Origin: Botryllus schlosseri | Taxonomy: Eukaryota | NCBI GenBank assembly: GCA_051294905.1 | Contig: CM119373.1 | Location: 3,102,001 to 3,166,000, forward strand | Direction: 5' to 3' | DNA length: 64,000 nucleotides | Shown here: positions 3,037-56,700 of the stretch, piece after piece | Layout: each line of letters starts with the position of its first letter | Numbering within the stretch: the stretch's first letter is position 1 | Made by a program: the position numbers and the translations under genes | The notes under the pieces: model-generated | Database searches by the model: none | The model's input: the letters and a program-made list of their open reading frames with translations, nothing else | What the model was told of the DNA's origin: nothing

Positions 3037-3046
3037 CGTCGTGTAA

Positions 3047-5110: not shown

Positions 5111-5393
5111 GTTAATGCGTTTGGCTATGTAGTTGATAAATTACTTAGCGACATCTCGACTCATGGGGAATCAACATTTAGTGTGTTACGCGAGAATTCA
5201 TATTCTCAAAAACTGGTACGGAAAAATGTGGAGACAATAAGAAAATAGTTTACTTAAGAAAATCTCGACTCACGCGGATTAGTAATTTTTAAAAATTAAA
5301 ATATAGTGTATTATTGGAACTACGTCAATTTTTCGTAAAGATTAATACCTAAAAATAATTCACTTAACGGCATCTGGACTCGTGTTGTTATTT

Positions 5394-5660
5394 ATTTCTC
5401 GGAAGCAAGTTATTATCAATACATATTGCTAAATACACATGAAGAATCGGTATTGAAATTCACAAAACAATTTAGTATATCACGTTTACGCAATAGTTAG
5501 TTCAAATCCAACAAAGATCACTTCGACGTGCCATTTCTCGGAGGCAAGTTATTATCAATACATAGTGCTGAATACACATGGAGAATCGGTATTGAAATTC
5601 ACAAAACAGCTATTTCTCGGAAGCAAGTTATTATCAATACTTAATAGTGCTAAATACGCA
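5394..5660. repeat. Local tandem repeat (3 copies)
   Basis: atttctcgga(a/g)gcaagttattatcaatac at ~5394, ~5533 and ~5612. Confidence 0.75.
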
Positions 5661-23019: not shown

Positions 23020-24381
23020 CAGAGGTGGTCAAAGTAGTCCAGGAAGCTACTCAAGTAGAAGTAGAAGTAGCGACGAAAAAAAATCTACTCAAGTACAAGT
23101 AGAAGTACTTCTTTCATGAGCAACCTAAAACTACTTGAAGTAGAAGTAGAATTGACTGACTTTAAAAGTACTCAAGTACAAGTAGAAGTACTTCTTTCAT
23201 GAGCAACCTAAAACTACTTGAAGTAGAAGTAGAATTGACTGACTTTAAAAGTACTCAAGTAAGTAAGTAGTTGTGAAAACGATCCTAATTCGTGTTCCCG
23301 TGGATTGTAAAAAGGTGCAAATTGAGCTATACGAAAGGTCACGAGCTTGATTCCTATTGATGCATACCAGCAGGTATTAAATTTTCGATAGCATAAGCAT
23401 TCGTCCACATCATGGGATGAAAATGATAGTATTAATTGATATGGAAATGCGATACTAATCCTGTTTTCTCGAACAGCACGTTTTAGAAAATAGCATGGTA
23501 TGGCGCCATCCCCCATATTATAAGGCCCGTAGTTTAGTCGAAGAGAAATACGCAGAAGTTTTATACTGTGTAAACACTTTGCGCGATTAGTAAATGTTAA
23601 TATAAAATATGTTGGACCATAAAAATGCCATATTGTGTAGCTTTATTTCCGGAAATTAAAGGCATTGCTACACTTGCTTGTATACTTCAACATGTCTGTT
23701 ATTCAGACAAAAGAACTGATATTAATTATAACTCAAAGTATTTGATACTGGGAATTGAATGTGAAACATAAATACATGTATTTCATTCCTTTGGTCCAGA
23801 AAGCTTCAAATGGTGGTATGCTAAAACAGCCCTAAAACTAACAAAAAAGTCAGAGTTCACTTTTCCAGGTTAGGACGCGCTATGGACATGCTATATAGAT
23901 TATGATATGACAAGTAAATGTTAGATTGCTAAACATCAGTTTCAAGCGTTATGATGAGCAATATATACTGTGATGAATTATTTCATATGGACGAAGGGCT
24001 ACAATATGGTGTGAGCGGAACCACGCCAACCCGCTACATAAATTATATTCCTCGATACCTTCGTGATATCATACTGGTCATTCCGTATCCACTGCGCGCG
24101 AAGCGCGAGGAAATTTCGGGGCTTTATGCAACTTTTTTGAAAATTAAATGTTGATACTCCGTGAAAACAGCCCCGACATTCGTCAGGCTATCTTCCTGAT
24201 TACAAGATTGAACTACTTCTACTTGACAAACTGAAAATAGCGAAAAGTAAGTAAGTAGATCACAAAATATTACGAAGTAGAAGTAGCGAAAATCAGATCT
24301 ACTTGAGTAAGTACCAGAAGTAGAGGAAAACTACTTGAGTACTTCGAAAAAGTAGAAGTACTTCGTTACTGACCACCTCTG
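23020..24381 (+). mobile_element. Intact non-autonomous hAT element ('AGTAGA' family, 1362 bp)
   Basis: TIR cagaggtggtca / tgaccacctctg; perfect 8-bp TSD ataacggc; agtaga/tactcaagta subterminal repeats. Confidence 0.92.
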
Positions 24382-27790: not shown

Positions 27791-28180
27791 GCAAATGGAG
27801 AATTTGAAAAACATGCATACATTGCATACATTGCATACAACCAATTAATGCAGCCATAACTCATCTACGATTACTAGAACACAATCAGGCCATGGCTATG
27901 AACTCTGCAATCGGCAAGCACTTGCCTGAGAATACAACTTGCGCTAAAAACTATCGCGACGAGAGATTCTCTATATTAGGTACAAACCAGGGCTTTGGAG
28001 CCGGAGCCCCGGAGCTCTATATAAAATTCAGCCGGAGATGGAGCCCGTTATTTGAGGAGTAGGTCCGGCTCCGACGTATTTTATAAGATGCTATTATATA
28101 TGCAACAACCACATCTGCTGATTTATCATTGTTGAACAGCAGGCCTGAATTTTAATGCTGCGCACAGCAATGGCATTGAG

Positions 28181-29985
28181 CAGTGCTTTTCAACCTGTGT
28201 GACTGTTCGCACTTGTGCGAATGAAAAAAATGGCAGTGCGAATGACGAAGGTGGTGCGAATAGTGCGAATGAAAATCCGGATCGAGTGCGAATGACGAAG
28301 GTAGTGCGAATGGTGCGAATGAAAATCCGGATCAAGTGCGAATGAAAACCGTGATTAATTGGTAACTTTTCTGACGTGGAATAATTCAAATAAACCTAAT
28401 AGGAAATTTAAGATCAGTGTAACTTTTGTAGTTGCGACGCAATTGTAAAACTTAATACGACGCACCACTCATCGTAGCCCTCACAAGCCGTAGTGAATTA
28501 ATATCCCCGCACTCTAATTATTACGTAGTGAATTAATATTCCCGCACTGTAATTATTACGTAACCAAAAGCCTGGTTTGAAGCTGGTGTAGTGGCAGTAT
28601 AAAGATCTCTACAATCTCTATATTATATTGGCAGACGTTACAGTACATCATCTGAGCCCGCGACAGGCTGAAAAAATGACGTCAAATTGACTTTCTGCTT
28701 TCTTACGCTAATCAATCATCATATTTTCGTAATAACTGTTCGATTTGCGCGAGGCACGAGGATAGCAATAAATACCATCATTACAGACTCACATTTGCAA
28801 GTTACTGTAACGCAAATTTTTACCCCTTCAAGGGTTATTACAGTATGGACCGCAAAGGGTATAATTTTGGGTCTACACGGTGCCAGAGCTATCTGTTCAT
28901 ATGTATGTTATATTTCTTGAATTTATTGCAAAAAAATCCCGCGATCGTTTACATATCCAAGGTCACTGTGTTGGGTACTGTAGCCAATAAGCGAGACACG
29001 CAAAAATATGGTTTTATAATGAGAATTCACGATAAGATTGTCCGATTGTTTTTTTCTGGAAAACGTGGTAGAAGATCGCTGGGATGAGCTATATAGTGTA
29101 GGCTGTAGAACGAGCGAGTTCAGGCATATGAGACTCATTCCTTTCGAGGCCAATCCCCTTTGCGTCCGGACACATGAAGACGTAAAGTTTTGGCCAATAA
29201 ACCGCTGATAAAATGAGTTGTCAAAAACATAAGCGGTAACAAAACCTTGGTTAAAAATGACCGATGCTGGATGGCTAAACCTTACGATATGGATGTGCGT
29301 CATACATGTTTTGTAGAGCTGTGTAGGGTAGAATTGCGGTGCGCGCGTTCTGTATGTCATACATGTCGGTATAATCGTAGCACACCACTGTAATAATAAA
29401 AATGAATTTCTTTTCATGGGTGAGGCTCAGGTCGCGAGACGCCACAAAACACAGATCTTGGTGTTAGTCTAAAAGCTGCTTTGGCATTATTAAACTGGTA
29501 TGATATACTCTCCTTGATCGTTTTGCACCTTATGTTCCAAGACATAAGACAACATCCTCAACACAAACATGTTGATTTTGTACCCTTTCGACAAACTGGA
29601 GCCTCCGGCACCTTTGTGTCAGCTCTCAAAAACGATTTCTGCAAGCAAGCATTTTGCACTCTGTATTTTGGATAGAAGTGCAGAACAGATTTTAAGTCCT
29701 TGCCATTCAAGCACTAGTAGACGTTCTCATACAAAACCCAACAACTTGTTTCGCTGAGAAGGGTTTTAGTGAAATAGTTGAAATCAAAACGAGCGAAAAA
29801 AGTTGCCTTTTTATTGAGACAAGTGATATTTTAAGCTACATAGTAACCAATTTTTTTGCACATCTGTACAAAATGTTAAGTATCTTCATCTTCTTTTTGT
29901 ATAACAATTTTCGATTAGTTTGTGCGAATGAAATGTATTTCACAAAAAAAGTGCGAACGGAGCTCAAAAAGGTTGAAAAGCAGTG
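28181..29985. mobile_element. Nested hAT-type element with gtgcgaat repeats
   Basis: TIR cagtgcttttcaacc / ggttgaaaagcagtg; TSD degraded; fragments of the family at 4035-4703 and ~33435-33702. Confidence 0.8.
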
Positions 29986-36079: not shown

Positions 36080-36678
36080 GTGATCAGTAACGAAGTACTT
36101 GTACTTTTTTGAAGTACTCAAGTAGTTTTCGTCTACTTCTAGTATTCACTCAAACAAAACTCATTTTTGCTACTTCTACTTCTACTTCATAATATTTTGT
36201 GATCTAATTACTTACTTTTCGCTATTTTCAGTTTGTCAAGTAGAAATAGTTTAATCCTCCAATCAGCAAGATAGCCTAAAGAATTTCGGGGCTGAGTATC
36301 AACATTTAATTTTCAGAAAAGTTTAGTAAAGCCCAGAATTTTCGTCGCGCTTCGCGCACAGTGGATATGGAGTGGTCAATATGATTTCATGATAGTATCG
36401 GTGAATAAAATCTAGGTAGCGGGCTGCGTGGTTATGTTCACACCGCATTGTCGCCAATATGAAATACTTCATCACAGTATATATGGCCCATCATAACGTT
36501 TCAAACTGGTGTTTCGCAATCCACCTTTTACTTATCATATCGTAGTCTAGCAGTCCATGGCGTGTCCTAATCTGGAACAGTGGGCTCTGACTTTTTTAGC
36601 TTTAGACCTGTTTTAGCATACAACCTTTGAAACTTTCTGGACTAAAGTCATGAAATACATTTTCTGCTGTTATAAGTA

Positions 36679-38670
36679 AGTAGTATTATGCACACTCTTT
36701 TGACGCGCCCCAATCAGCGTCGAGTATTTGATCACGTGACATCTGTTAGCCAATCAGAACGCAGAACAATGTGGGTGTGGTTCTAATACGAGAGAGGTTT
36801 TGGTTGTGCGAGAGATGCCATAGTTCCAGTCCAGTAACGCTGAGATATTTATTATGTCATGTTTGCGTAAGTTGATTACCTTCATTACGATTGCGTATTG
36901 AAGCATATTCATGATTACGTCATATGCGTAGTTGATTACTTTAGTTATTTCGAGAGCGGCTTTGCATAGTTCCAGTAACGCTGAGATATTTATTTCGTCA
37001 TGTTTGCGTAAGTTGATTACCTTCATTATGATTGCGTATTGCAGCATGTCCAGTAATGATTACGTCATATGCGTAGTTGATTACTTTAGTTATTACGAGA
37101 GCGGCTTTGGTTTCAGTAACGCTGAGATATGATTACGTCATGATTGCGTCTAGTTCCAGTCCAATAACACCGAGAAATGTTTACGTCATTATGAATGTGC
37201 AGTTGAAGCATGTTCATGATTACGTCATATGCGTAGTTGATTACTTTAGTTATTACGAGAGCGTCTTTGCTTAGTTCCAGTAATGCTGAGATATAATTAC
37301 GTCATGATTGCGTCTCGTTCCAGTCCAATAACACTGAGAAATGTTTACGTCATTATGATTGTGTAGTTGAAGCATGTTCAGGAATGATTACGTCATATGC
37401 GTATTTGATTACGTTAGTAACGCCGAGATATGATTACGTCAATATTGCGTTGATCGCCTTTGTTATTGCAGTTTAAGAAAGTGCAAGGCAATATATAACG
37501 TGTAATATTTATTACATGATTATTCGCTGTTCGCTGTAGATTGAATATGTGTAATAATATAAAAATTGGCTAAAATTGTGAATATCTAATCATTGTGAAA
37601 ATAGCAATTATCTCATGTTGTTGATGAAAATGATCAGCTTACGTTATTATAAGCACCAAAGCATGATTTAAATATTTTCAAATATTCCACTTTTTAAATA
37701 TTATTACTTTGGTTCTAACTTCGAAACAACAATTATTAATAATATTTTTTTATTACTCATTGAAATCATTGTAGCTTATAACGGGTAAACTGAACATCTT
37801 TTTAATAATATTGTTGCTTTCTGAATATCTTATTGATTTTTAGTTAAATTATCGATTATCTTGTATAGTTGATAAATTAGTTTGTACAAAAGACGTTCAC
37901 TGTTATAATCTACATGATTTCAATGATTATTAAAAATAATTTTAATATTAAATCTAACAGAGTAATAATATAAAAAATTGGCTAATATTGTGAATATCTT
38001 ATCATTGTGAAATTAGCAATTATCTCGTGTTGTTGATGAAAATAATCATCTTACGTTGTATTAGGATTTATTTTACAAAACTGTAGTGTAAAGGTCTTTA
38101 GTACTTTGGAAAAAGTAGTTTCTATCTACTTTACTAAATTTGATGTAAAGTGTTCGACGATTTAAAAAATTGGTATTTATTTTACAAAATTCCCAGTATA
38201 AAAGTTTTTACAAAATCGACTTGAGTAAGTACTGTCACTAGGCAAACCCTAGCAGAGTGTACTCTGATAAATGTAGTAGTAGTAATCGATTATCACAAAA
38301 TAAATAGATAACATACAATATGTGCGTTGCTACGATGTCTCATAAATACTTTCATTTAATGTATACAAGTAGGTTATTTATACGTTAAGTCAAGAATAAA
38401 AAATTAAAGCTGTCTCCATAGAAAGATATGTAAATATACTAGAACGGTTACATATGGACGCCTGCAAGTAAGAACGCAAGCTGATCATTTTCATCAACAA
38501 CATGAGATAATTGCTAATTTCACGATGATTAGATAGTCACAATATAAGCCAATTTCTATATTATTACTGAATATCTTATCATTATGAGGTTTATTCAACT
38601 CTCATTAATTCAGGATTCTAGAACTACTGAAGTCTCATGGAATTATAAAATACCGTGCTTTGCAAACAAT
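36679..38670 (+). repeat. Left terminal inverted repeat (~2.0 kb)
   Basis: Reverse complement of 44992-47432; inner boundary ccgtgctttgcaaacaat. Confidence 0.95.
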
Positions 38671-39606
38671 GTAAAAATGATAGAAGCCAAGTTAGCTTGG
38701 TTCCCTGGGGACATCTATGCCTTTGTCAGGAATGTTCATCCATCGATTAGGTAATTGAATACGCACGCTTATCAATGCGTCTTGAAAAGCTAGTGGACGG
38801 GAAGTGAATACCCTAGACAAGTCCGAACCTGTATATATTGCAGGATTAGAGATAGCTTGTGCAATAGCCCTAAATACAACAAAATGCGGAGAGCTGATAT
38901 CGCAATAGGTGCGCGGTATTCGACAATAACAAAACGCAATTGTTCGAACTTAGTGGATCCCATACCGCATTGTTAGCTCTAAATACTTAACCGTTGAAAA
39001 ATCTATTCCCCAATGAGTTAGACAGCAATGCGTTAGTCGTAGCGATTCAATCATGTGCTCTATAATAACAAAAACACAAATGACTTAGTGGATATCACTG
39101 CTAGCACTAAATACCAGTCGCATAGCTGAGGCTAAATACCGTAAATAACTACTGAGTTGGCCGAATGGTGATTTACACGCTCGGAAATCGTCACTTCTTG
39201 CACTTTACTAAAAATTTGCTGCTACTAAAATGTTAAAATGTACTTTTTTCAATGGCCTTGATGAGCAGCGTCAGTTTCATCTATATCCTATCGTGCATTT
39301 TCGCACAGCAGAATGACTTATCGCATCGTAAAATAGCAAAAATACATCGAGAATCTGCAGACTTTCACTGCGAAATATTTGAGCTATACGAATTATCCTT
39401 CAAAGTGAGCTTACATATTGGATATCATCCAAACCCTCTCGATATCGAAATAATTGATTATTTGGAGTACTCAAGTATAGGTTTCGCCTGCTTGGGCTAT
39501 ACCTAATCAAGCGATTATCTGTTTAGACTAGAGTTTTCAGTTATCAGACAAATAATACCTTCAATACTTACTTTTTTCAGTCACTCGGAAATCAGCACAT
39601 CATGTA

Positions 39607-40566
39607 GGGGAGATGTGGTACCGATGGATCACTGGGACCGAAAATACTTTGAAAATTCTCTATGATAACTCTATGATTACACTCCGTGAACTTGTCTACA
39701 ATTGCATGCTGGCAAAATCTTTCCTCACATACAAAAAAATTCGACGTGCGCGAGCTATGGGGTCTCTCACAGATGATTTTTGTTTTGGGGGGTCTAAACT
39801 AAATTTAGATCGACATAAACAATTTTCTTTGTAACCTTCAACACGAACAAACCAGCAATCATTTTTATTGTGAAGTGTAGGGCTTGTATCAGGCTATATA
39901 ATGGCACCTATTATTTTTTCCGTACTTTCCTTGAGTGGACTTTATTTCGATTCATGTATAAAATTCGTAGGGTGGGGACCGATGATACAATCGCTAAATC
40001 AAGCAAAATAATCAAGCATACTAATCATGAAACAAATGAAACATGCCTACGTACAGAAAATCTTTATCTAATAATTGCATATGATGTTTTATCGCTATAA
40101 CGAGGTATTTGGAAGTCACATTGTCGATTTTCGGGCAATATGTATGTACCCACAAATTTATAAGTTCGAGCCTAAATCGAAACGTATTTTATCACAACAT
40201 TTGAGTTTATATTTATTCTATTTTTTGACAGTTGCGACCAAACATTCTTCTTTGGCTTGCTGCAGCTTAGATTATAATACTGAGCAAGACAAGTAGCCCC
40301 CTTTGAGTTTTTTAGGGTATATGTGCCATAGGTCCCCGGGTCGTGTGTCATTGGACCCACCGGGTGGGGACCGATGACACGTTCGAGCAACAAATTTTAA
40401 ACGTCCATAAATATTTTTTGAAAAGACGGATATTCATGTATATGTGCGCGATAGGTAGAGCTTGTATCAAAGTGCTGAGCCAGCAAAAGATCTGCTGTTT
40501 TCGGCTGAACATTTCGGGGCCAGCGATCATTTTCCAATTTTTGATCCATCGGTACCACATCTCCCC
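39607..40566. mobile_element. TA-flanked MITE (Tc1/mariner-like target) inside the Polinton-like element
   Basis: 25-bp perfect TIR ggggagatgtggtaccgatggatca, flanked by TA on both sides. Confidence 0.8.
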
Positions 40567-42249
40567 TACTTTGGAAGAAATTTACTGGTAATAGAATGTT
40601 GAAATGTACTTTTCCATTTGCCTTGATGAGCGGGCCCAGTTTCATCTATATCCTACCATGCATTTTCGCACTTCAGAATGACTTATCACAATGAAAAATA
40701 GCACAAATACATCGAGAATTTGCGGAGTCTCACTATACGACAATTGAGTTTTACAAATTACCCTTCGAAGTGAACCTACATGTTGGGTATTATCCAAAAC
40801 CTCGTAGAATGTCGCTCCGAGCGACAAATCTTTTGAATTAAGGTGGAAGCAGCTATTTCCGACTAAGTAAAATGTTAGTATTCTAGGTCTATTTCTGCTT
40901 AATTCTGAAACTATAATGGATTTGAAGCAGTACAATATCATAAACACTTTATAGTATTTGGTACATGTACACTAAAAGCTTACTTGAGTATACTCTGAAG
41001 AAGTCAACATTTACTTGTTTAGCCGCTCGGAAATCATCACTTCTTGTACTTTACTAGAAATTCACTGCTGATGAATGAGTAATCGACTTTAGTCGATATT
41101 CTCGTACTACGAAACTGAAGAATGAATAGACGCGTTTTCGAACTATAGAATGATATAGTCTCTACAAAATGTTTTGATATCAAAATAACTTTTTTACATG
41201 AATGGTCACGTATCTTAACATTCAAATAACCCAACACAGAACTAGTATTACAAGAATATCATAGTTCTTGTACCAAAGTTGTTTGTGCACAATATATGTT
41301 TAAGGTAAGTCCTACACATTCATGATTTCGTCCGAGTTTGTATTTTAGAAAATAATATACCGACATCGCGACATCTATCAAAAACAAAACCATGATCACT
41401 GCTTGAGAGACCTATCAATGTCATCACAGTAATCTTGTAACTTCCACAAAAGAGTAGATATGTATTTGACTTTCGTTCCACAAAGCTAACGCGCAAACAA
41501 TTTACTTTACTAACGAGAAGTATCGAGTTATCGAATGATTTTCCCTTACATCAAAACAAATAGAATGTAGATTGTAGAACTATATTTCTAACGTTCCTAA
41601 CCCTTTGCACACCGCAGTTGTAAATCACACAAGCAACAAGTTTCGAGAAACGAGTTATTGAATAACGTGAAAGTGTTTTTCCAGTGTCAAGTCGTTATGT
41701 TGATTAAAGCATCTAATGTAATACCATGAAGTGACACTTCGAAACTATCGTCAGTTCTCCGTGAGCAAATATCGTGTTCTACAAGTGTTAAGATATTGTA
41801 TTATGTAGCTAGTAATTGGTACACGTAATCTCGGGATCGAACCAACGTGTGTTAACTTGCGTTATTATGTACCTAGTAATTGGTGCGAGTAATGCCGCAA
41901 CTGCTGTTGTTCAATGCATTTACCATGTTCGTAGCAAGCATCTTAATAAGGATAGACAGCCCCAAGCAAATAATGTAAGTATGTATGTACGAATGATTGG
42001 TCTAATGGTGCTTAACGACAGAAGCTGGTCTTCTATTCTATATTCCGAAATAATCAAGTTCGTGGTTTACCAACACCTCGCCTCTTAGAAACGTGGTGGA
42101 ATCACTTATAAATCCTCACGTTCACTTAACTAAATCTAATTTGATACTCGAGTACTGAACCTTAATTTTCCAGCAGTGTGATAGACACCGTCAGATGGTA
42201 CTCAACATCGCATAATTCTGCTCGAATACAAGTAAAAGTACAGATTTCA

Positions 42250-42322
<73 letters not shown>

Positions 42323-42332
42323 GGTAAGTAAG
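42250..42332. repeat. (AAGT)n microsatellite
   Basis: About 20 tetranucleotide copies. Confidence 0.97.
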
Positions 42333-44991
42333 TGAGTAACTGGTTATGTTTGTAGACTATATCTCCACTTCTACCTTTCAGAGATGTTGAGCAGAGAAGT
42401 ACATGTGTTTCTTCAAAGTAGTCAAGTAGGTTTTTGGGTGCATGCACCAACTACTCAAGTGTTTATGATATAGGCCTGTTTCGAATTCGAGACAGTTTCA
42501 GTATTAAACAAAAAATGGACCTTGAATACTAACTTTTTATAATGTGAAATTTTAAATGCATAAACGAAGAAACGTCACTTTTACAATGCTTCGGTATGAT
42601 TTCTATATTATTCCACTCTCGTTATTGGACTGCGGTGTGACGGTGAGCTATATCTCGATGCCCGGGCTTCCGAATTAATTTTTTCGATTTATTCTACCCT
42701 ATGTAGATTTAACATAAGGAAGGTTATTTCACTCATAAAATTTGAAATACGTATTTGCTCGAGTTAAAGCCATAACGCTTGGAGTGAAATTTTACGTGGT
42801 TTTCGTTAATATCCAACTTGGCTAATTCCGAAATGTAAATAGAAAAACTCAAATATCGCATAGTAGGACTTCGCAAATTTTCGATATATTTTTGCTATAT
42901 TTTCATGGTGATAAGTCATTCGGGACGGTGAAATGCATTATAGGAAATAAATGAAACTGGTACAATTCATCAAGACCCCTGAAAAAAGTACATTACATTT
43001 CAACATTTTATTAGCAGGTAAGCGAAATACCACAAACTGTGCTAACCTTCGGAGTTGTTAAGTAAAGAAGTACTCGTACTTCTTCGGAGTACCCAAGTAG
43101 GATTTTTCTCCCACATGCACCAAATACTCTCAAATCCTTATGATATTGGAGTGCTTCAACTTCATGATAGTTATAGTATTAAGCAGAAATATACCTGGAG
43201 TACTAACGTTTTACTTACTCGGAAATGACTACTTCTATCTTATTTTAAAGGATTCCTCGCTCGACGCGAAATTTTATTAGGTTTTGAATAATATCCAACA
43301 TGTAGGTTCACTTTGAAGGGTACTTCGTAAAACTCAAATATTGCACAATGAGAGTTCGCTAATTCTCGATGTATTTTTTGGTATTTTTATTGCGGTAAGT
43401 CATTCTGCAGCGCGAAAATGCATCGTGGGATATAGATGAAACTGACAACGCTCACCAAGACCACTGGACCACTGAAAAAGTGCGTTTCAATATTTTAGTG
43501 GCAGTAAATTCCTAGTAAAGTACAAGAAGTGATGATTTCAGAGTGAGTTAAAAAGTAAGTATTGTAGGTATAGTTTGGCCGAAAACCGAAAACTCTGAAA
43601 TAGAAGTAGATGAAGTGTAAAAAAGTTAATCACTTGATTAAGTATAGCACAAGCAGACCAAACCTATACTTGAGTACTTCAAAATGTACAAGTACTTCGC
43701 TATGGACTCCCTCCACGTAAAAAGTGACTAGGTTTTAGACTACTTTATCGGTACTTGACAGTTTCAGTTTTAGATAAGATTTGGAATAAAAACTAGCTCA
43801 TTCATCCACTTAAATATCTCTTCTTTAACCTGTACTTGATCGTAACAAGTAAATCTCATTTTCTATTAATTCTACACGTACACTTGACCATATTTTATGA
43901 CTTACATAATTACTTTTCCATATATTTGAAGTCAAGTCTGTCAAATAGCAGTATATGTTACGATGAGCTTATATTCGTTCTGTTTGATTATCTTGACTAA
44001 TGATATTCACTCGGCGAGCTCTCCCGTGATAGCCTTGGGACTTGGAACAGTGGTATATGACATCATAGCGATACGAGGTTACGACAGTTTATAATTAGCT
44101 ACCTTACGACACCAAATTTCGTTAGTTCATCTCCACCTTCAAATATCGTGTTATACAAATATTGTGTATACGGAACAAATACATATATGGCTATGTTGTT
44201 GCAATCTGCAAAAAGTACCTCCCTCAGTAACTAATTTCTGGTAGGCTATGCATACAAATGAGGACAGTTACATCAACGAGTCGCAACTTGTTGTATTATG
44301 TAGTTAGTAATTAGTGCAGGTAAGTCCGCAACTACTGTTCAAGACCTTTTCCGCGTTTTTTTGTCAAGCATCCTCGTAAGGACAGACAGTCCCAATCAGC
44401 TAATGTAAGTGTGTATGTATGTATGAGGGGTCTTATGGCGGTTGACGAATGAAGTTGGTCGTCTAATCTATTCCGAAATAATCAAGTTAGTGGTTTTTAA
44501 CAGGACCTCACCTCATAGAAACTTCAGTAGAATAACTTATAACTCCTCACGTTTACTCAACTAAATCTAATTTGATAATCAAGTACTGGATCTTAATTTT
44601 CAAACGAGTTCAAATTTTACTCTAACTTATGAGATTACATATAAAAACTTTTCACGATGCAATGAATTTTACATCATGAGTCAAGTGATTTCGTAATTAA
44701 CACAAGATAATTAAATGAATTTCTAGAGGATTATAAGATATTCGTGTCATCCTCCTTCGTATATCATAAAAGAATATCTACTGCAGTCGGTTTGTAATTA
44801 TTTGCGCTGTGTTTGATTAACTCAATCATGTTGCAGTGTATTTTAATAACGAAACACTTTTACAGCATAAACCAAATAATTTCATAATAAACACAAGCTA
44901 ATTTCATAATAAACATAAAAAATATTTCCGCGCCCTCCTAAACCTAATTCCTCCTAAACCTATAACCTAATCCTGAGGCGCGCATTTTTAA

Positions 44992-47432
44992 ATTGTTTGC
45001 AAAGCACGGTATTTTATAATTCCATGAGACTTCAGTAGTTCTGGAATCCTGAATTAATGAGAGTTGAATAAACCTCACAATGATAAGATATTCAGTAATA
45101 ATATAGAAATTGGCTTATATTGTGACTATCTAATCATTGTGAAATTAGCAATTATCTCATGTTGTTGATGAAAATGATCAGCTTATGTTCTTACTTGCAG
45201 GCGTCTAGATGTATCCGTTCTAGTATATTTACATATCTTTCTATGGAGACAGCGGTAATTTTTTATTCTTGACTTAACGTATAAATAACCTACTTGTATA
45301 CATTAAATGAAAGTATTTATGAGACATCGTAGCAACGCACATATTGTATGTTATCTATTTATTTTGCGATAATCGATTACTACTACTACATTTATCAGAG
45401 TACACTCTGCTAGGGTTTGCCTAGTGACAGTACTTAATCAAGTCGATTTTGTAAAAACTTTTATACTGGGAATTTTGTAAAATAAATACCAATTTTTTAA
45501 ATCGTCGAACACTTTACATCAAATTTAGTAAAGTAGATAGAAACTACTTTTTCCAAAGTACTAAAGACCTTTACACTACAGTTTTGTAAAATAAATCCTA
45601 ATACAACGTAAGATGATTATTTTCATCATCAACACGAGATAATTGCTAATTTCACAATGATAAGATATTCACAATATTAGCTAATTTTTTATATTATTAC
45701 TTTGTTAGATTTAATATTAAAATTATTTTTAATAATCATTGAAATCATGTAGATTATAACAGTGAACGTCTTTTGTACAAACTAATTTATCAACTATACA
45801 AGATAATCGATAATTTATTTAAAAATCAATAAGATATTCAGAAAGCAACAATATTAATAAAAAGATGTTCAGTTTACCCGTTATAAGCTACAATGATTTC
45901 AATGAATAATGAAAAAATATTATTAATAATTGTTGTTTCAAAGTTAGAACCAAAGTAATAATATTTAAAAAGTGGAATATTTGAAAATATTTAAATCATG
46001 CTTTGGTGCTTATAATAACGTAAGCTGATCATTTTCATCAACAACATGAGATAATTGCTAATTTCACAATGATTTGATATTCATAATATTAGTCAATTTT
46101 TATATTATTACTGAATATGTTATCATTGTGAAATTAGCAATTATCTCGTGTAGTTGATGAAAATAATCAGCTTACGCTGTTATAAGCTCCAAAGCATGAT
46201 TTAAATATTTTTTAAATATTCCATTTAAAAAAAAATTACTTTGGTTCTAACTTTAGAATAATAATTATTGATAATATTTTTTCGTTATTAATTGAAATCA
46301 TTACAATAATATTTAAAAGATGTACACCGTTATAAGCTACAATGATTTCAATGAATAATGAAAATATTATCAATAATTATTATTCCAAAGTTAGAACCAA
46401 AGTAATATTATTTTTAAAAATGGAATAATTAAAAAATATTTAAATCATGCTTTGGAGCTTATAACAACGTAAGCTGATCATTTTCATCAACAACATGAGA
46501 TAATTGCTATTTTCACAATGATTAGATATTCACAATTTTAGCCAATTTTTATATTATTACACATATTCAATCTACAGCGAACAGCGAATAATCATGTAAT
46601 AAATATTACACGTTATATATTGCCTTGCACTTGCTTCAACTGCAATAACAAAGGCGATCAACGCAATATTGACGTAATCATATCTCAGCGTTACTAAAGT
46701 AATCAACTACGCATATGACGTAATCATTACTGAACATGCTTCAACTACACAATCATAATGACGTGAATATTTCTCAGTGTTATTGGACTGGAACGAGACG
46801 CAATCATGACGTAATTATATCTCAGCATTACTGGAACTAAGCAAAGACGCTCTCGTAATAACTAAAGTAATCAACTACGCATATGACGTAATCATGAACA
46901 TGCTTCAACTGCACATTCATAATGACGTAAACATTTCTCGGTGTTATTGGACTGGAACTAGACGCAATCATGACGTAATCATATCTCAGCGTTACTGAAA
47001 CCAAAGCCGCTCTCGTAATAACTAAAGTAATCAACTACGCATATGACGTAATCATTACTGGACATGCTGCAATACGCAATCATAATGAAGGTAATCAACG
47101 TACGCAAACATGACGAAATAAATATCTCAGCGTTGCTGGAACTAAGCAAAGCCGCTCTCGAAATAACTAAAGTAATCAACTACGCATATGACGTAATCAT
47201 GAATATGCTTCAATACGCAATCGTAATGAAGGTAATCAACTTACGCAAACATGACGTAATAAACATCTCAGCGTTACTGGATCGGAACTATGGCATCTCT
47301 CGCACAACCAAAACCTCTCTCGTATTGGAACCACACCCACATTGTTCTGCGTTCCGATTGGCTAACAGATGTCACGTGATCAAATACTCGACGCTGATTG
47401 GGGCGCGTCAAAAGACTGTGTATAATACTACT
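44992..47432 (-). repeat. Right terminal inverted repeat (~2.44 kb, with an extra internal duplication)
   Basis: Reverse complement of 36679-38670 plus ~450 bp extra at about 46060-46510. Confidence 0.95.
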
Positions 47433-48217
47433 CAAGTATTGGATTTATTTTTCACTTTCTATTACAAGTATCATACTTTGTGTTCTAATTAGTATCAGTT
47501 GTTTTGTCTAAAAACATACATGTTTAGGGATAAGTGGAAGTGTAGTAATGCCTTTAATTTCCTGAAATAAAGCGACATGACCATATACCATTTTTACGAT
47601 CCACCATATTTTATATTAGCGTTTACTAATCGCGCAAAGTGTTTACACCGTATCCGATACTACTTCTCCGTATTGCTCTTCGACTAAACTACGGGCCTCA
47701 TAATATGGGGGGAGGGTGCTATACCATGTTATTTCTGAAACGTGCTGTTCGAGTAAACAAAGGATTAGGATCGCATTTCCATGTCAATACTATCATTTTC
47801 ATCCCTTCATGCGGACTAACGCTTATGCTGTCGAAAATTGGATAACTCCTGGTATGCATAAATATGAATCAAGCTCTGCAGCTTTTGCATAGCTCAACTT
47901 GCAGGTTTTGACAATCAATGCGAACGAATTACGATCGTTTTCACAACCACTTACTTACTTGAGTAGATTTAAAGTCAGTTAATTCTACTTCTGCTTCAAG
48001 TAGTTTTAGGTTGCTTATGGAAGAAGTACTTCTACTCGTACTTGAGTACATTTTTTCGTTTCTACTTCTACTTCTACTTGAGTAGCTTTCTTGACTACTT
48101 TGACCACCCGTAGCTATTACTGGGTCACACAGAGTCAAATTGGACGCGCGCAAATATTGTGGCAGTGGGCGAATCTTTTCCTCGATATAGCTCAAGAATT
48201 TGAAGCTATATACTTAC

Positions 48218-48325
48218 GTTCGCAGTTACTTCCATAATATCCGTAGATGCAGTCACACTCAGAAAACGTATCCGCACATTCTTCATTATGATGACAGGTA
48301 TTCGGGTGGTGTTCACAGTAATTTA
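48218..48325 (-). CDS. EGF-like exon 7 (108 bp)
   Basis: tgcag / gtaagt; NYCEHHPNTCHHNEECADTFSECDCIYGYYGSNCE. Confidence 0.85.
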
Positions 48326-48441
48326 CTGCATGGAAGCAAAGTGATTTGTCAAACTTACTGACTCTATACGCAGTCAAGTATTGTTGCATTGAGCGTGTAC
48401 TATTCTGGTCACAGCTCAAGAATTAGAAACAATATACCCAC

Positions 48442-48561
48442 CGTTGCAGTTTATTCCATAATATCCGTCGGTGCAATCACACGTATAGTACGGACGAGTG
48501 TCATTATTAAGACATGTTCCTCCATGTTGACAGGGAATCTGGTGGTGTTCGCAAAATCTCT
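48442..48561 (-). CDS. EGF-like exon 6 (120 bp)
   Basis: cacag / gtgggt; RFCEHHQIPCQHGGTCLNNDTRPYYTCDCTDGYYGINCN. Confidence 0.85.
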
Positions 48562-48683
48562 CTGTGTGGAAGCGAAGCACTGTGTGAAGCCTACTCAATT
48601 TAGGCAGAACAAAATGTTGTGCTATTGAGCGAGTCTTTTTCTGAGCATAGCTTTAAATTTTAGAAGCGATATAGCCTGCTTAC

Positions 48684-48803
48684 GGCTGCAGTTTGTTCCA
48701 TAATATCCGTCGGTGCAATTGCACGCATGATACGTTTGAGAGTCATTCTTTAAACATGTCCCGTTGTGTTGACAAACATTGGGGTGGTGTTCACAGAAAT
48801 TGT
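48684..48803 (-). CDS. EGF-like exon 5 (120 bp)
   Basis: tatag / gtaagc; NFCEHHPNVCQHNGTCLKNDSQTYHACNCTDGYYGTNCS. Confidence 0.9.
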
Positions 48804-48919
48804 CTATATAGAAACGACGCGATGTGTCAATCGTATTTAATAAATACACAACCAAGTGTTGTGGCAGTGAGCGCGTCAAGTTCTGGGCATAGATCAATAA
48901 TTAGAAACGATATACTTAC

Positions 48920-49039
48920 CACTGCAGTTTTTTCCATAGTATCCGTCGGTGCAATCACACGTATAGTACGGGTGAGTGACATTATTCAGACATGTTCCGT
49001 TGTGTTGACAGGAATTCGGATGGTGTTCACAGTAATTTT
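48920..49039 (-). CDS. EGF-like exon 4 (120 bp)
   Basis: tatag / gtaagt; NYCEHHPNSCQHNGTCLNNVTHPYYTCDCTDGYYGKNCS. Confidence 0.9.
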
Positions 49040-49151
49040 CTATATAGAAACAACGCAGTGTGTCAAACGTACTGAATTACAGGGCAACCAAATGCTGTGG
49101 CAGTGAGCGAGTCTTCTTCTGGGCATAGCTCAAGAATTAGAAACGATGTAC

Positions 49152-49271
49152 TGCAATTTTTTCCATATCCGTCAGTGCAATCACACGTATAGTACGGATG
49201 AGTGGCATTAATAAGACATGTTCCGTTATGTTGACAGACATTAGAGTGGTGCTCAAGCTCAGAGCAATTTT
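49152..49271 (-). CDS. EGF-like exon 3 (120 bp, variant; ancestral donor deleted)
   Basis: tacag acceptor; NCSELEHHSNVCQHNGTCLINATHPYYTCDCTDGYGKNC; only a weak gtacat donor remains, still in phase 1. Confidence 0.6.
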
Positions 49272-49415
49272 CTGTAAGTAAACGAAGCGATATGACTTGC
49301 TTAGTTTAGTTATCTATAGTCAAACCAACTGGAAACCGACACAACTCAATGTTGTGGCAGTGTGATAGTCTTTTTGACGACATAGCTCAAGTTTTATAAT
49401 AAGCGATATACTTAC

Positions 49416-49535
49416 GGCTGCAGTTTTTTCCATAATATCCATCGGCGCAATTGCACGTATAGTACGGGTGAGTGACATTGTTCAGACATTTTCCATTATG
49501 TTGACAGACGTTCGGGTTATGTTTGCAGTAATTTT
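49416..49535 (-). CDS. EGF-like exon 2 (120 bp)
   Basis: tacag / gtaagt; NYCKHNPNVCQHNGKCLNNVTHPYYTCNCADGYYGKNCS. Confidence 0.9.
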
Positions 49536-49654
49536 CTGTACGGAAACAGGGTGATATGCCCAAACCAACTGAATTTAGAAACATCCCGGTGTTGTGGTAT
49601 AGTAAGCGAGTGTTTTCCTGTGAAAAGCTAAAAAATTGGAAACGATACACTCAC

Positions 49655-49774
49655 CACTGCAGTTTTTTCCATAATATCCATCGACGCAATTGCACGAATA
49701 GTACGGATGAGTGCCGTTATTCAGGCATGTTCCGTTATGTTGACAAACATTAGGGTGATGTTCACAGTAACTTT
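49655..49774 (-). CDS. EGF-like exon 1 (120 bp)
   Basis: tatag / gtgagt; SYCEHHPNVCQHNGTCLNNGTHPYYSCNCVDGYYGKNCS. Confidence 0.9.
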
Positions 49775-49836
49775 CTATATGGAAACGAAGCGTTGTGTCA
49801 ATTGTACTGAATTTATACACAGTCAAGTGTTTTGGC

Positions 49837-50478: not shown

Positions 50479-51323
50479 CTGAAATATGGAAAAATGGAAT
50501 TAAGTGATATTTAAGTTCAGCATAGATATACATATATATCCAGAGGTAGTCAGTAACGAAGTACTTCTACTTTTTGGAAGTACTCAAGTAGTTTTACTCT
50601 ACTTCTGGTACTTACTCAAGTAGACCTGATTTTCTCTACTTCTACTTCTACTTCGTAATATTTTGTGCTCTACTTACTTACTTTTCGCTATTTTCAGTAT
50701 GTCAAGTAGAAGTAGTTTAAACCCCCCCCAATACGAAAGATAGTCTTAGGAATTTCGGGGCTGTTGTCACGGAGTACCAACATTTCATATTCATAAAAGT
50801 CGAGTAAAGCCCAGAAATTTTGCTGCGCTTAGCGCACAGTAGTTACGGAGTGGCAAATATGCTTTCAGGAAAGTATCAGTGAATATAATTTAGGTACGGG
50901 ATTGCTTGGTTCCGCTCACACCGCATTGTCGCCCATATCAAATATTTCATTACTGTAAATATGGCCCACCATCAGAGGTGGTCAGTAACGAAGTACTTCT
51001 ACTTTTTCGAAGTACTCAAGTAGTTTTCCTCTACTTCTGGTACTTACTCAAGTAGATCTGATTTTCACTGCTTCTACTTCTACTTCTTAATATTTTGTGA
51101 TCTACTTACTTACTTTTCGCTATTTTCAGTTTGTCAAGTAGAAGTAGTTCAATCTTCCAATCAGGAAGATAGCCTGGGGGATTTGGAGCTGTTTTTACGG
51201 AGTATTAACATTTAATTTTCATAAAAGTTTAGTAAAGCACAGAATTTTCGTCGCGCATCGCGCGCAGTGGATACGTAGTGACCAGTATGATTTCACGAAA
51301 GTATCGATGAATATAATTTAGGT

Positions 51324-52468
51324 CAGGGGTCACCAACACGCGGCCCACGGGCCGCATGCGGCCCGCCAGGTCATATTTTGCGGCCCGCGACCTGATTTGG
51401 AATTTCGGAAGAACGCTTAGTAAAGTGTTTTGAAATGCTGAAATTGATTTCAGTTTAAACATATTGTTGCTGTTGTTTAAAGTAAGCTATTCTCTCTTGC
51501 CCAATATCACTGTTCCTCACTGGCTGATAAGATTTTGTTGATATGACCATTCATATTGCCTTGATGTGCAATGGACCACCACTGCTGACACCGAGTCGCT
51601 TGGAAAACGACTTCGGGCTCTCCAAAAGATCGAGCTTTATGAGGAGATAGTTTTCCAGAAAGAACCGTGTCCAGGCCATCTGCAGTCAATCTGCGACAGT
51701 AGAAGGAAAATTATGCGGCCGTCGACACTTAATTCGATTAGGATGTGTTGGTAGATTTGAATTATTCTTGAAATTTTCTCCGCGCTGCGCGCAGTTCAAT
51801 GCGAGTTGGTTTTCGATTTTAATATAGTATAGTGTCTTTGTTATATGAGCCTCACAGTACAGACGCGAACAGCAGAGGAAATCAATGCGATAAATGAAGA
51901 AATACCAATTAGTACTCGTGTTCTCCTCATCACGAAGGAAATTTGTTTCTGGTAGGCCTACGTTGGGGCACATCCAATATATTTTCACTATACGGACAAT
52001 CCTGATGGGAGGTCAAGAAATAGCAGCATGTAACAAAAGGAATAAGAACAATTGGCCCACCCAAAGATTCAGCACAGTATTGATAACTAGCTAAATTTTT
52101 GAAGACACCACCTGCATCACCTCTGTCGATGAATCTGATAACATGGGCTAAAAAAGGATAAATATTTGATAACGATAGATGAAACTATACTGATATTTTT
52201 GACGAGATTTCTCGTGGTTATGAAAAATTTTCGCGCTTCGCGCGTCGAGAAAACGAATCCCCCTGCTATTCATAACATACTAACTCACGATTTGGGTGCG
52301 CATAGTAAGCCGATATGAGTAAATACATTAGTCTGGAGTTCATCGGCAATGGACAATGGCCATTAAACTACATTGCTTATTATGATCTCGATATTGAAGT
52401 CATGCGGCCCGCGGCCTCTAGGAATTTTGAAAAGTGGCCCGCGACCGATTTTGAGTTGGCGACCCCTG
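51324..52468. mobile_element. hAT (Charlie-like) element
   Basis: caggggtcaccaac / gttggcgacccctg; perfect TSD atttaggt; gcggccc subterminal motifs. Confidence 0.9.
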
Positions 52469-52725
52469 ATTTAGGTGGAGGGTTGGCGTGGTTCCGTTCA
52501 CACCACATTGTCGCCCTTCACCCATATGAAATAATTCATCACAGTATATATGTGGCTCATCATAACGTTTGAAACTGATGTTTCGCAATCTAGCATTGTC
52601 TTGTCATATCGTAATCTAGCATATATGTCCATGGCGTGTCCTAATCTGGACGAGTGTACTTCGACTTTTTTTTAGTTTTAGAGCTGTTTTAGCATACCAC
52701 CTTTGAAACTTTCTGGACTAAAAAC

Positions 52726-54133
52726 CAGTGTTGGGATGACTCGAGTCATGACTTGACTCGAGTCAGACTCGAGTCAACTTTTTCGTGGGACTTGACTTGA
52801 CTCGAGTCACTTTGCAAAAATGACTTGACTTGACTCGGTGCTTCAAAAATGTGGAATGACTCGTGACTCGGAGCAAAATTTTCGAGTCAATTTCAAGTCA
52901 TCAAGTAAACGGTGTCGATTAAATGACTATATCTTGTGCATGTTCGGATTATTCACGATACGCCAGCGTCATTTGTGAGAGCAACCAGTCATTCATTAAT
53001 TGTAAGTTTTACTGATCCTCCATTGTTACATCACAAATAAACTGACCGCAAACGAAATGATCACAGCTTGCGTTGTCGTTACAATAGTATCTCAGTAGAT
53101 TAAATCTAGTAGCAAGAGCAACGTATCGCTGTTCATTGGACGGCCCTGTCCTTACATTGCACAGCGCTCACCTTTACCAACCCTCTTGTATAATTTTAAT
53201 CGAACGAATATAGTTTATGCGTTTATACTCTCACGGATGTGTAGATAGTTAGTGGATTGAACGACATCATTTTTTTCAACTTCTCGAGGCTTCGTATTCG
53301 ACCCTCTATTTTGGCTGATAATAACAGAATGCAGCTTGTAGCTCGGAGTCGTCAAACTCAACTGACGTGGCGGGCCGGATTCGAATAGTCAGATCACTCG
53401 CGGGCCGCCGCACCAGTCAAATGATTCCAAAATATTACCAGCTCTTAACACAATATACGCACTTTTTCGCATTCTCAGTATCGGGTGTCAGTGTCAGCGA
53501 TTTGCTTCTGACGATGACTTGAAACCACACCTCCGCTGTCGGGTGGTTGTAATGTGGCCTATGAATATGAATATACTCGACATTTGCTATCTTGGAGGAA
53601 TATGTATTAGAAGTATTTCTTACTACAAATTCGACAAATGTGCTTGATAAAATACACGCATTTTTCAATCAATACTTAGACTTGCTTCGCGGGCCGGGTG
53701 AAATCATTTGGCCGGCCTTATGTTTGACACCCCTGATGTAGCTATACTGTTACTGACGTATTTTATTAGCAGTTATACGTGTGCGTGAGCGATACAACGC
53801 ATTTTTACATGTATATTTAACTTATATATTCGTTATTTGATAGATGATAAATGGCCAATAAATCTACCTTTATCACAGCTAGCAAAATGTAGTGACTGTA
53901 AATGATCAGTTGATCACTCATACTTCGAAAATTCAATTTGACTTGAATTGTGACTTGACTCGTGACTTGACTTGACTTGACTCGACTTGACTCGAGTCAC
54001 CTCCAAAAAACTAGTGACTTGACTTGACTCGAGTCACCTTCGAAAATCGATTGACTTGACTTGACTCGAGTCAAAATGTGCAATGACTCGAGATGACTCG
54101 TGACTCGAAGGTAGTGACTTGATCCCAACACTG
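52726..54133. mobile_element. (gactt)n-type hAT MITE
   Basis: cagtgttgggat / atcccaacactg; TSD ctaaaaac / caaaaac (1-bp deletion). Confidence 0.85.
53344..53735. mobile_element. hAT (Charlie-like) MITE
   Basis: cggagtcgtcaaac / gtttgacacccctg; TSD ttgtagct / atgtagct; absent from the sister copy at 21791-22674. Confidence 0.75.
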
Positions 54134-56700
54134 CAAAAACATGAAATACATATTCTGCTTTAAGAAGTAGTATTTATATTTCACTTTCAATTTCCAGTAT
54201 CATATACTTTGAGATATAATCAATATCAGTTCTTTTGTCCGAATAACATACATGTTGAAGTATAAAAGCAACTGCTGTAATGCCTTTAATTTCTCGAAAT
54301 AAAGCTACACAATATGGCATTTTTACGATCCACCATATTTTTCATTACCGTTTACTAATAGCGCAAAGAGTTTACACCGTATCCTATACAACTTCTCCAT
54401 AATGCTCTTCGACTAAACTACGGGCCTTATAATATGGGGGATGTCGCCATACCGCCATACCATGCTATTTTCCAAAACGTGTTGTTCGAGAAAACAGAGG
54501 ATTAGTATCGCATTTCCTTATCGATACTATTATGTTCATCCCATGATGTGGACGAATGCTTATGCTATCGAAAATTGGATACCTGCTGGAATGCATCAAT
54601 ATGAATCAAGCTCGTCACCTATCACATAGCTCAATTTGCAGCTTTTTATTATCCATCCAATCAGGATCGTTTTCACAACTACTTACTTACTTGAGTACTT
54701 TTAAAGTCAGTCAATTCTACTTCTACTTCAAGTAGTTTTAGATTGCTCATGAAATAAGTACTTCTACTTGTACTTGAGTAGATTTTTTCGTCGCTACTTC
54801 TACTTCTACTTGAGTAGCTTTCTTGACTACTTTGACCACCTCTGCCCACCATAACGTTTGAAACTACCATATCGCAATCTAGCAATTACCAATCATATCG
54901 TAATCTAGCAGCCCATTAAGTGTCTTGCTAATCTGGAAAACCCAGCTATTTCTAACGTTACACCTGTTGTAGCAGATCACCTTGGAAGCTTTATGGACAA
55001 AAGACATGAAATATAGTTTCCGCTTTTTAGAAGTGGTATTTCACTTTCAATTGCGAGTATCATACTTTGAGTTCTAATTAGTTGTAGTTCTTTTGTCTGC
55101 AGAACATACATGTCGAAGCATAAAAGCAAGTGTAGTAATGCCTCATTTTCCGAAAATAAAGCTACACTAAATATAACTTTTACGGTCCACAATATTTGTT
55201 ATTAACGTATACTAATCGCGCAAAGTGATGAAACCGTATTCGATAAAACTTCTCCGTATTGCTCTTCGCCTAAACTTGGGGCCTTATAATATGGGGTAGG
55301 GTGCAATGCCATGATATTCTTCCAGTAAACAAAGGGTTAGTATCGCATTTCCATATCGATACTATAATTTGCATCCCGTGATGCGAAAAAATGCTCATTC
55401 TGTCGAAAATTCGTGCCTCCTGGGATGCATCAATACGAATCAAGCTCTCTCCACCTTCCGCATAGCTCAATTCGCAGCTTTCGACAGTCCATGCGAACGA
55501 ATTAGGACTGTTTTCAAAACTACTTACTTCCTTGAGTAGATTTAAAGTCAGTCAAATCTACTTCTACTTCAAGTAGTTTTAGACGGCTTATTGAAGAAGT
55601 ACTTCTACTCGTACTTGAGTAGATTTTTTTCGTGGCTACTTCTACTTCTACTTGAGTAGCTTTCTTGACTACTTTGACCACCTCTGTATATAACTAACAT
55701 CACGTTACACGCAGACGAACTAGCAACGGCCTTATGATTTAATCCATCCGCTAATCAGCCTGCTATCTAATTTGTATTAGTCACCCAACCAATCTAATTT
55801 CGTGTGAGGTCGAGTTCGAACTGGCCTGGTGCACAAGACCATACAACAGCGACCGTTAAATCAGTGAATTCTGAATTTTGCTTCGATTGCTATTTTACAT
55901 TACCCTCTTCATTTGACCTTTTTAACAGGACTTTATTGTCATTTCTCTGGTAAGAGATACTTCGAAAACGACTCACTTGGGAATCAGGCCTATATATTTC
56001 TGTATCTAGCTGCTGATCATTTTATGTCCTCTTCGTGGTCGCAGATTTCAGTGGCACACTTGAAATATCATAAATCGCTCACATCAAAATTACATGAGTA
56101 GATAATTTGCTTCAAGTTTCGTCATTTTCACTCGTTGATGAGAGTATAAAAATGAGAACGAAATAATTATGCAATATGTGATAGTGCGTTCGGGGATCTT
56201 AACCACCGACCAACGCCAAGCGATTAGAATTGAATGCGAAAATTATAGGAAAGGATCCTACTTTTGAAGTGCCTGTGAGATTTGTTATGTGTAGAGCAGA
56301 GAATAGTCTGACAGTATTTTAACATAGGGTGTTCGGAATTTACAGGCTGAAACGGGGACGATCAGAACGTTGAACCGAAATCGAAGACAGTTGCTGGATC
56401 ACCCGAGGTAGGTCAGTATGGAGGGATACTGAATTTGTGGTGAGATTGAACCGAAAAATATCTTCCACGAAAATCAAAACTTCGGGAATTGATTGTATCC
56501 AAACTATAAAATGAATTAACGGCTCAACGTATGGAATTATCCTACTATTTTCATAAATCCTGACATACCGTCATTGTCACATCGACTTCTTTTTCGGGTA
56601 GACAATGGTGTTCCCCTGAAAACGAATGAGTAATCCTTAAATGGGTCCCTGAAAGAAATTACTGCTATTATTCAATTCGGCTTATATTTACGCTACTGCT

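Follow-up and report, generated by a model that had tools for sequence, protein, structure and literature searches.

The window analysed here (a 64,000-nt stretch of the Botryllus schlosseri genome, contig CM119373.1, positions 3,102,001 to 3,166,000 of the forward strand) contains a gene-less element of 10,754 bp at window positions 36679-47432. We conclude, with a probability of roughly 0.8, that this element is a palindromic satellite that was copied and inserted by the proteins of a Polinton (Maverick) and from which approximately 5.3 kb has been lost by the base of its loop. The candidate supplier of these proteins, hereafter the helper, is a Polinton of the same genome with the same ends, and the sisters of the window copy are gene-less elements that are palindromic over their whole length.

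Structure of the window element

The initial annotation described a Polinton-like unit with long terminal inverted repeats (TIRs), and both its coordinates and its AGTAGT..ACTACT termini proved exact (5' end, AGTAGTATTATGCAC; 3' end, GTGTATAATACTACT). The TIRs of the element thus start with one of the two end motifs, (AG)3 or (AGT)2, that are defined for Mavericks in a passage of PMC8097293. The target-site duplication (TSD) has the 6-bp length of Polinton duplications and stands as annotated, with one mismatch between TAAGTA and CAAGTA. A 5-bp duplication (AAGTA) is also readable from the window copy taken alone; we assigned 6 bp because 22 of the 25 two-ended copies of the palindrome family carry perfect 6-bp TSDs of their own. 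The window copy and two others have one or two mismatches, and three more listed rows had one end absent. Insertion into a hAT-type MITE (miniature inverted-repeat transposable element) was likewise borne out, since the two flanks of the element are continuous with uninterrupted MITE copies at 23127-24376 and 54140-54840. The features of the element and its insertion site are as follows.

36080..36678, plus strand: putative hAT-type host MITE, 5' part, interrupted by the element
36673..36678, unstranded: left TSD, TAAGTA
36679..47432, unstranded: whole element, 10,754 bp, interpreted as an apex-deleted copy of a gene-less palindromic Polinton satellite
36679..44934, plus strand: complete left arm of the original palindrome, from end to apex, 95-97% identical to sister arms
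36679..37550, plus strand: left end shared with the helper, comprising the terminal repeat and 141/164-bp subterminal arrays, 83-91% identical to the polymerase/Death-domain end
38785-38869 and 38910-39169, plus strand: two short non-coding helper fragments (78%), both from the same helper end
39607..40566, unstranded: private MITE of 960 bp with 28-bp inverted ends and a TA duplication, present in 0 of 23 other arms
42250..42339, plus strand: (AAGT)n microsatellite
44928..44982, unstranded: conserved apex, consisting of a CCGCGCC stem, a 42-nt loop and 6 bp of the right stem
44982..44983, unstranded: deletion junction, with approximately 5.3 kb of the right arm gone
44983..47432, minus strand: right-arm remnant of 2,450 bp, 97.95% identical to the left arm
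46112..46560, unstranded: hairpin-type repeat unit of 449 bp, present in the right arm and in sisters and lost from the left arm
47433..47438, unstranded: right TSD, CAAGTA, one mismatch relative to the left
47433..48110, plus strand: putative hAT-type host MITE, 3' part

The left 8.3 kb of the window copy is collinear with the sister arms up to and through the apex, where the G-rich strand of the loop carries four TTAGG repeats. The right stem continues for six bases and is then joined, without microhomology, to the outermost 2.45 kb of the right arm; this junction occurs once in the genome (495 Mb). Allowing for the private 960-bp MITE and the lost 449-bp unit, the original length would have been approximately 15.5 kb and the loss approximately 5.3 kb. 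The 6,303 bp between the mirrored parts, annotated as the unique interior of a 10.75-kb unit with unusually long TIRs, is instead the rest of the left arm of this longer palindrome. Alignment of the arms (36679-38679, 2,001 bp, against 44983-47432, 2,450 bp) gave 1,960 matches, 41 substitutions (2.05%) and one 449-bp gap. The repeats are therefore highly similar over some 2 kb, as annotated, but calling them near-identical overstated the case: sister arms are 99.8-99.97% alike, and the divergence of the window copy is the highest among the copies seen. The fragment at 38910-39169 corresponds to helper sequence adjoining the helper's tRNA-Leu gene, and 24% of the left arm matches the 164 kb of flanking host DNA.

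Because the junction is unique in the genome and the arms are 2% apart, the window copy is likely old, stabilised and dead. Its deletion likely happened after insertion. In three further gap-free copies, one arm has lost 0.9-2.3 kb, and each time a breakpoint falls about 25-95 bp from the loop, so that four large one-arm deletions each start within approximately 100 bp of it; under uniform breakpoints the chance is about 1/40 for each near-loop breakpoint, although this was counted after the fact. Two smaller losses (about 0.4 kb) lie away from the loop.

The same deletions bear on the idea that the 10.75-kb form is itself mobile, that is, an ordinary non-autonomous Polinton with 2-kb TIRs whose deletion preceded insertion. 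Both ends of the window copy are intact and it could move in principle, and butterfly polintons with 2-kb TIRs are mentioned in a passage of bioRxiv 2025.02.07.637071. Nevertheless, the 495-Mb genome holds its junction only once, no other of the 37 two-ended elements (facing pairs of ends) is as short, the next measuring 14,480 bp, and no other copy is as diverged; it also has a MITE of its own and a TSD with a mismatch. Together with the three copies that are deleted beside the same apex, this makes independent mobility improbable.

The annotation had reported no PolB, integrase, ATPase or capsid open reading frame (ORF) in the interior, and our searches agreed. None of the autonomous Polinton gene set (polymerase, rve integrase, ATPase, protease, capsid) is present in the element: 19 helper ORFs compared with the whole window gave 0 tblastn matches at E<=1e-3, and a word size of 2 gave a best E of 0.054. 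The tblastn search for decayed Polinton genes that had been proposed for the interior thus came back empty. The longest stop-free interior frame (109 aa) is like that of shuffled sequences (mean 101, 95th percentile 136). In-place decay of a coding Polinton was rejected, since no helper protein match and no DNA match to a second helper lineage (below) lies inside. A structured RNA gene was ruled out as well; Rfam returned nothing at threshold on the element, with one sub-threshold microRNA-type hairpin over a MITE, and the element has no tRNA gene. In one RNA run, of which about 6% was read, 28 reads fell on 3.2 kb of the interior, and 96% of them continue into unlike sequence; that run gave no sign of a transcript from the interior, which is weak evidence. 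In a run labelled as another species, short contig pieces (<=387 bp, mostly 90-99%) match the interior, and the palindrome family may therefore be shared with a related species.

The candidate helper Polinton and the palindrome family

In a genome search with the first 152 bp of the element, 40 of 152 candidates were scored, all matching. The autonomous partner anticipated by the initial annotation was found as ten copies of 17.2-17.9 kb, which have the same ends as the palindromes and a full gene set and, a variable accessory region excepted, are 94-100% identical among themselves. Their TIRs measure 236-251 bp in six copies and 331 bp in two, and the ORFs are open in all six copies checked (the 17.8-kb elements). 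Pfam identified an rve integrase (PF00665, E 1.9e-13) with a chromodomain and an A32 ATPase (PF04665, E 1.1e-6). The polymerase ORF (1,309 aa) contains Exo I/II and Pol A/B/C motifs, and 17 of its 42 homologues carry PF03175. The capsid candidate, a 425-aa ORF, is 29% identical to a UniRef 'major capsid protein'; in one search made with that homologue, 24-30% of the members of its nearest Atlas clusters carried PF21738 (double jelly-roll). Direct Pfam, PHROGs and PDB sequence searches gave no match for the polymerase or capsid ORFs, and the penton and protease are named from size, position and motifs only.

The helper also encodes Bcl-2, BIR, Death-domain and E2 ubiquitin-conjugating genes (L033:506-2253, L034:5945-8194), a cell-death control kit typical of viruses, and carries three tRNA genes (Ala, Pro and Leu). 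One derivative of 17,987 bp (L063-L064, G000:C15:11059686-11077672) has both ends from the Bcl-2 end, with a 934-bp perfect TIR and a duplicated capsid-gene block; it is possibly an early step to one-ended symmetry, at helper length.

Three pattern censuses of the genome (controls 4, 0 and 0 hits) defined the palindrome family. The subterminal motif gave 83 hits (control 0), which resolve into the 37 facing pairs, and the central apex motif gave 36 hits at 31 loci (control 0), all of them in elements with these ends and none in the ten helpers. Fifteen symmetric, gap-free palindromes measure 14,884-16,088 bp and have arms 99.76-99.97% alike. Their apex consists of a GC stem that encloses a loop of about 35-45 nt, which is G-rich on one strand and holds two to four TTAGG repeats. 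Both arms match the same end of the helper (positions 17872-17335, 16811-16731 and 14870-15107) and not its other subterminal region. In several subfamilies, both arms also contain pieces of helper genes, some at 97-99% identity (the Death-domain ORF, the minor capsid/integrase junction). Given helper-type ends and duplications, a helper in the genome and no decayed genes inside, mobilisation in trans, as the annotation had proposed, is the best reading.

A 100-N gap interrupts seven of the 37 pairs, and gap-broken copies were left out of the size counts (five double-apex copies, C5_10.64, C9_5.20, C14_8.07 and C10_27.39). The double-apex copies (23.5-28 kb; L065-L070, L115-L124) each have the gap at the middle turn; they are false doublings at scaffold gaps, that is, assembly artefacts, and were rejected as rolling-hairpin concatemers. 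It is very improbable that assembly folding created all the palindromes and that the window copy is an ordinary cluster of decayed repeats: the gap lies at the turn in all five double-apex copies and several others, whereas there are gap-free copies with their own 6-bp duplications and different flanks, arm-difference sites are common to several loci, and the window copy is itself gap-free, with 2% arm divergence and the same apex.

A second helper lineage (L136-L139; G000:C4:14444530-14463178, 18.6 kb, and C16:1715313-1732959, 17.6 kb) has different ends from the first, with 60% identity in the polymerase and 70% in the capsid protein. It has three palindromes of its own, which measure about 14.8-15.8 kb and have a related apex; the end of one lies at window position 5748:

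1-5748 of the window (G000:C3:3085710-3107748): second gene-less palindrome, right arm and end, with ends AGTAGTGTTG and duplication ATTTTG

This palindrome has an arm of 7,510 bp, a related apex, a 7-kb insertion in the left arm, a tRNA-Leu gene at 3046-3130 and a 202-bp array.

Two further loci were noted. L084 (G000:C9:5216010-5221500) is a palindrome (99.45%) whose two arms each contain distant Bcl-2 pieces; it lies beside a gap-broken copy and likely represents a further end family. At L071-L073 (G000:C15:22387151-22419455), one palindrome arm has received a distant Polinton of 16.6 kb, with a 6-bp duplication of its own and a polymerase 36% identical; tblastx matches to L073 were set aside because they fall in the palindrome part of the locus and not in the nested Polinton.

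Copying, length and competing explanations

Differences between arms record how the palindromes are copied. All 16 arm differences of copy C11_14.12 recur among the 19 of C1_21.49, in phase with the apex, and in four of five sister pairs the arm markers stay in phase with the apex. Arm differences are thus passed on in register with the loop, which means that each strand is copied from one end to the other, with no obligatory hairpin transfer and no complete regeneration of one arm from its partner. Full re-symmetrisation in each cycle was ruled out by the arm differences common to sister copies, and an obligate apex flip by its occurrence in one of five pairs only. Neither sign of a rolling-hairpin replicon that we looked for in the palindromes, a flip in each round or head-to-head concatemers, was found. 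New captures do appear in both arms, which indicates that symmetry is restored at times only: C16_10.73 carries, in each arm, a 667-bp stretch of helper sequence at 99% identity, and seven of nine insertions of at least 80 bp relative to C3_33.64 are mirrored; the two exceptions are MITEs that have target duplications.

At terminal bases 8-40, helpers and palindromes have blocks of variation in common, which suggests ongoing exchange of ends between them. Base 8 or 9 also differs between the left and right ends of several copies (TATT, TATA, TAGT) from unrelated subfamilies, within a tiny GTAT-N-ATAC palindrome. C1_21.49 is without its first AGT.

Judging from the shared ends and duplications, the helper's protein-primed polymerase would copy the palindromes and its integrase would insert them in trans. 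A displaced single strand of a palindrome could fold on itself into a duplex that has a complete origin at one end and a loop at the other, and such a duplex might, by analogy with palindromic derivatives of phi29 and of the yeast killer plasmid, be replicated efficiently from its terminal-protein end. The loop and stem of the apex may serve as a self-priming point for occasional re-copying and, once inserted, as a spacer that protects the palindrome from breaking. Breakage at the palindrome centre followed by end-joining would produce one-arm deletions, and the deletion of one arm would have stabilised and inactivated the window copy. According to a review, centre deletions stabilise a 15.4-kb mouse palindrome 25-fold and spacers of 35-52 bp block breakage (PMC8701086).

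Several observations weigh against this account. No free, replicating or packaged form was seen, and all steps are read from inserted copies. Helper matches (to four helper copies) cover 1,225 of the 8,304 bp of the left arm of the window copy, most of which has no known source. One sister pair has the apex and three adjacent markers flipped relative to the outer markers. The symmetric 15,565-bp copy C1_3.29 (L131-L132, G000:C1:3286665-3302229) has a perfect duplication and lacks the conserved loop, its turn lying about 150 bp inside the usual apex, so the loop may be non-essential. The deletion junction rests on this assembly, since it is spanned by none of the contigs of three other DNA runs, a result that speaks neither for nor against it. 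It is also possible that the deletion preceded the insertion of the window copy.

The 23 arms of seven subfamilies measure 7,438-8,046 bp (within 8%), and the palindromes have 84-91% of the helper's length. The arm of the window copy has no stretch at 88%/200 bp in common with the six other subfamilies, and no short two-ended derivative occurs among the 37 facing pairs. That subfamilies with unrelated interiors keep their arm length suggests selection on length. Adenovirus has a packaging window of 75-105% of genome length. Packaging in the helper's capsid would be the simplest cause of the size range, common ancestry or replication limits being possible too; we rate capsid packaging only just short of an even chance. 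In a passage of PMC8097293, intact Mavericks are about 17 kb with a 10% spread, linked to a capsid constraint.

A fuller version of the satellite account holds that the palindromes are a self-maintaining lineage with a conserved hairpin apex whose TTAGG repeats resemble telomeric ones, into which the ends of the active helper are swapped, which is padded with junk to 84-91% of helper length for capsid packaging, and which is re-inserted by the integrase; we propose it tentatively, at somewhat below even odds. If it is correct, the palindromes are natural, heritable 'gutless' vectors, and the length window would be genetic evidence of particles on the way to new insertions in animal-type Polintons.

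The strongest competitor grants dependence on the helper and attributes the length to a single ancestor or to replication or integration limits, and the arm identity to gene conversion in the chromosome. One apex lineage is common to all palindromes, so length could be inherited; conversion between arms can take place in chromosomal palindromes, and the single apex flip shows arm-to-arm recombination. On the other side, interiors have been replaced almost wholly across subfamilies while length stayed within 8%, one-arm insertions stay unconverted in inserted copies, and 16 arm differences went unchanged through a transposition. We regard this explanation as plausible, if on balance doubtful.

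The palindromes might alternatively be kept by the host as silencers, their mirrored helper fragments giving hairpin RNA and small RNAs against the helper. The presence of helper gene sequence in the two arms of several subfamilies, some of it at 97-99%, would suit such a role, and according to a passage of PMC8235507, snapback genomes of adeno-associated virus (AAV) can regulate the parent virus through double-stranded RNA. It is nonetheless unlikely, given that the subfamily of the window copy has no coding helper sequence, that the reads of the RNA run mostly run on unlike the interior, and that copies are young and scattered like parasites.

Relation to known systems and other features of the window

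The palindromes have the (AGT)2 ends and 6-bp duplications of Polintons/Mavericks (polintoviruses), as these are described in passages of PMC8097293, PMC4028283 and PMC6431247, and share their terminal 250-870 bp with a full Polinton of the same genome. They differ in being gene-less, in being palindromic over their whole length where Polintons have short TIRs, and in an interior that is mostly non-helper. Like non-autonomous Polintons, they have no coding capacity and a probable dependence on an autonomous copy, share their ends with an intact element in the genome they inhabit, and show several recent insertions. Non-autonomous Polintons were reportedly described by Kapitonov and Jurka in 2006 as internal deletions with two different inner ends, whereas both arms of the palindromes come from one helper end and form a near-helper-length hairpin with a conserved apex.

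As in snap-back genomes, both ends derive from one parent end and are joined at a turn; the sequence is not essentially the parent's, given the 1,225 of 8,304 bp above and an apex that helpers lack. Palindromic terminal-protein DNAs of phage phi29 (Esteban, 1997) and a hairpin plasmid with its inverted dimer from pGKL1 (Kikuchi, 1985) have reportedly been obtained. These are analogous in the inverted duplication of one end and, probably, in a hairpin intermediate and a protein-primed polymerase; unlike those short or simple parental deletion products, the palindromes are near helper length, with foreign filler and a conserved loop turn. SYREC, a symmetric recombinant of adenovirus 12, is said to be palindromic in build and packaged at genome length (Deuring, 1981). 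A passage of PMC2396429 describes SYREC as helper-dependent and containing host DNA. The two systems share a viral end on both sides of mostly non-viral DNA and, probably, helper dependence and protein priming, but SYREC arose in culture without integrase insertion, whereas the palindromes are inherited chromosomal families.

AAV snapback genomes are, in passages of PMC8235507, self-complementary defective genomes with one viral end duplicated that need parent proteins, as the palindromes probably do; they differ in using Rep and the rolling hairpin and in being made anew in each infection from viral sequence. The asymmetric centre deletions resemble the centre-break revision that stabilises a 15-kb mouse palindrome, although the portions of PMC8701086 in question concern transgene arrays without a spacer and mostly small deletions, as against 0.9-5.3 kb beside a 42-nt loop here.

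No description of whole-length palindromic, gene-less, size-matched Polinton satellites was found in the literature searched, whose scope excluded Repbase, subscription journals and supplements; Repbase entries could hold an undescribed palindromic example. Two bioRxiv papers mention TIR-bearing partial polintons and 2-kb coding TIRs in passages that mention no palindromes, and a passage on a lizard notes no non-autonomous Polinton copies (PMC3014272). Already known are snap-back defective genomes and non-autonomous Polintons. New here are a named helper, the apex-side deletion pattern, the inheritance test of arm differences, the length window across subfamilies, the second helper lineage and the rejection of concatemers.

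Polinton replication and the need for particles in movement have been deduced mostly from gene content. A gene-less parasite shows what is needed in cis, here apparently one end over about 0.5 kb, a strand able to fold, a loop of 35-45 nt and near-helper length, and inherited arm differences are a ready marker for the mode of strand copying. If it is the capsid that sets length, the palindromes are evidence for a Polinton virion stage. Hairpins of 15 kb break assemblies, in which spurious doubled copies then appear at gaps, and Polinton searches that rely on genes overlook them. As a dead, revised member, the window copy has value as a record of a host genome disarming palindromes.

The host MITE has short inverted ends of the CAGAGGTGGTCA type. 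Another copy, at 50973-54844, reaches 3.9 kb after nested insertions and has an intact 8-bp duplication (CCCACCAT) on both sides; short TIRs with an 8-bp duplication, which we take to be a hallmark of hAT elements, are the basis of the putative assignment. Just to the right of the host MITE lies a tandem array of 6.3 copies of a unit of about 236 bp (48286-49813). Segments 4112-4709 and 28175-28825, 23-24 kb apart, show inverted matches of 86-91% with 50-bp tandem units and are probably two copies of one repeat.

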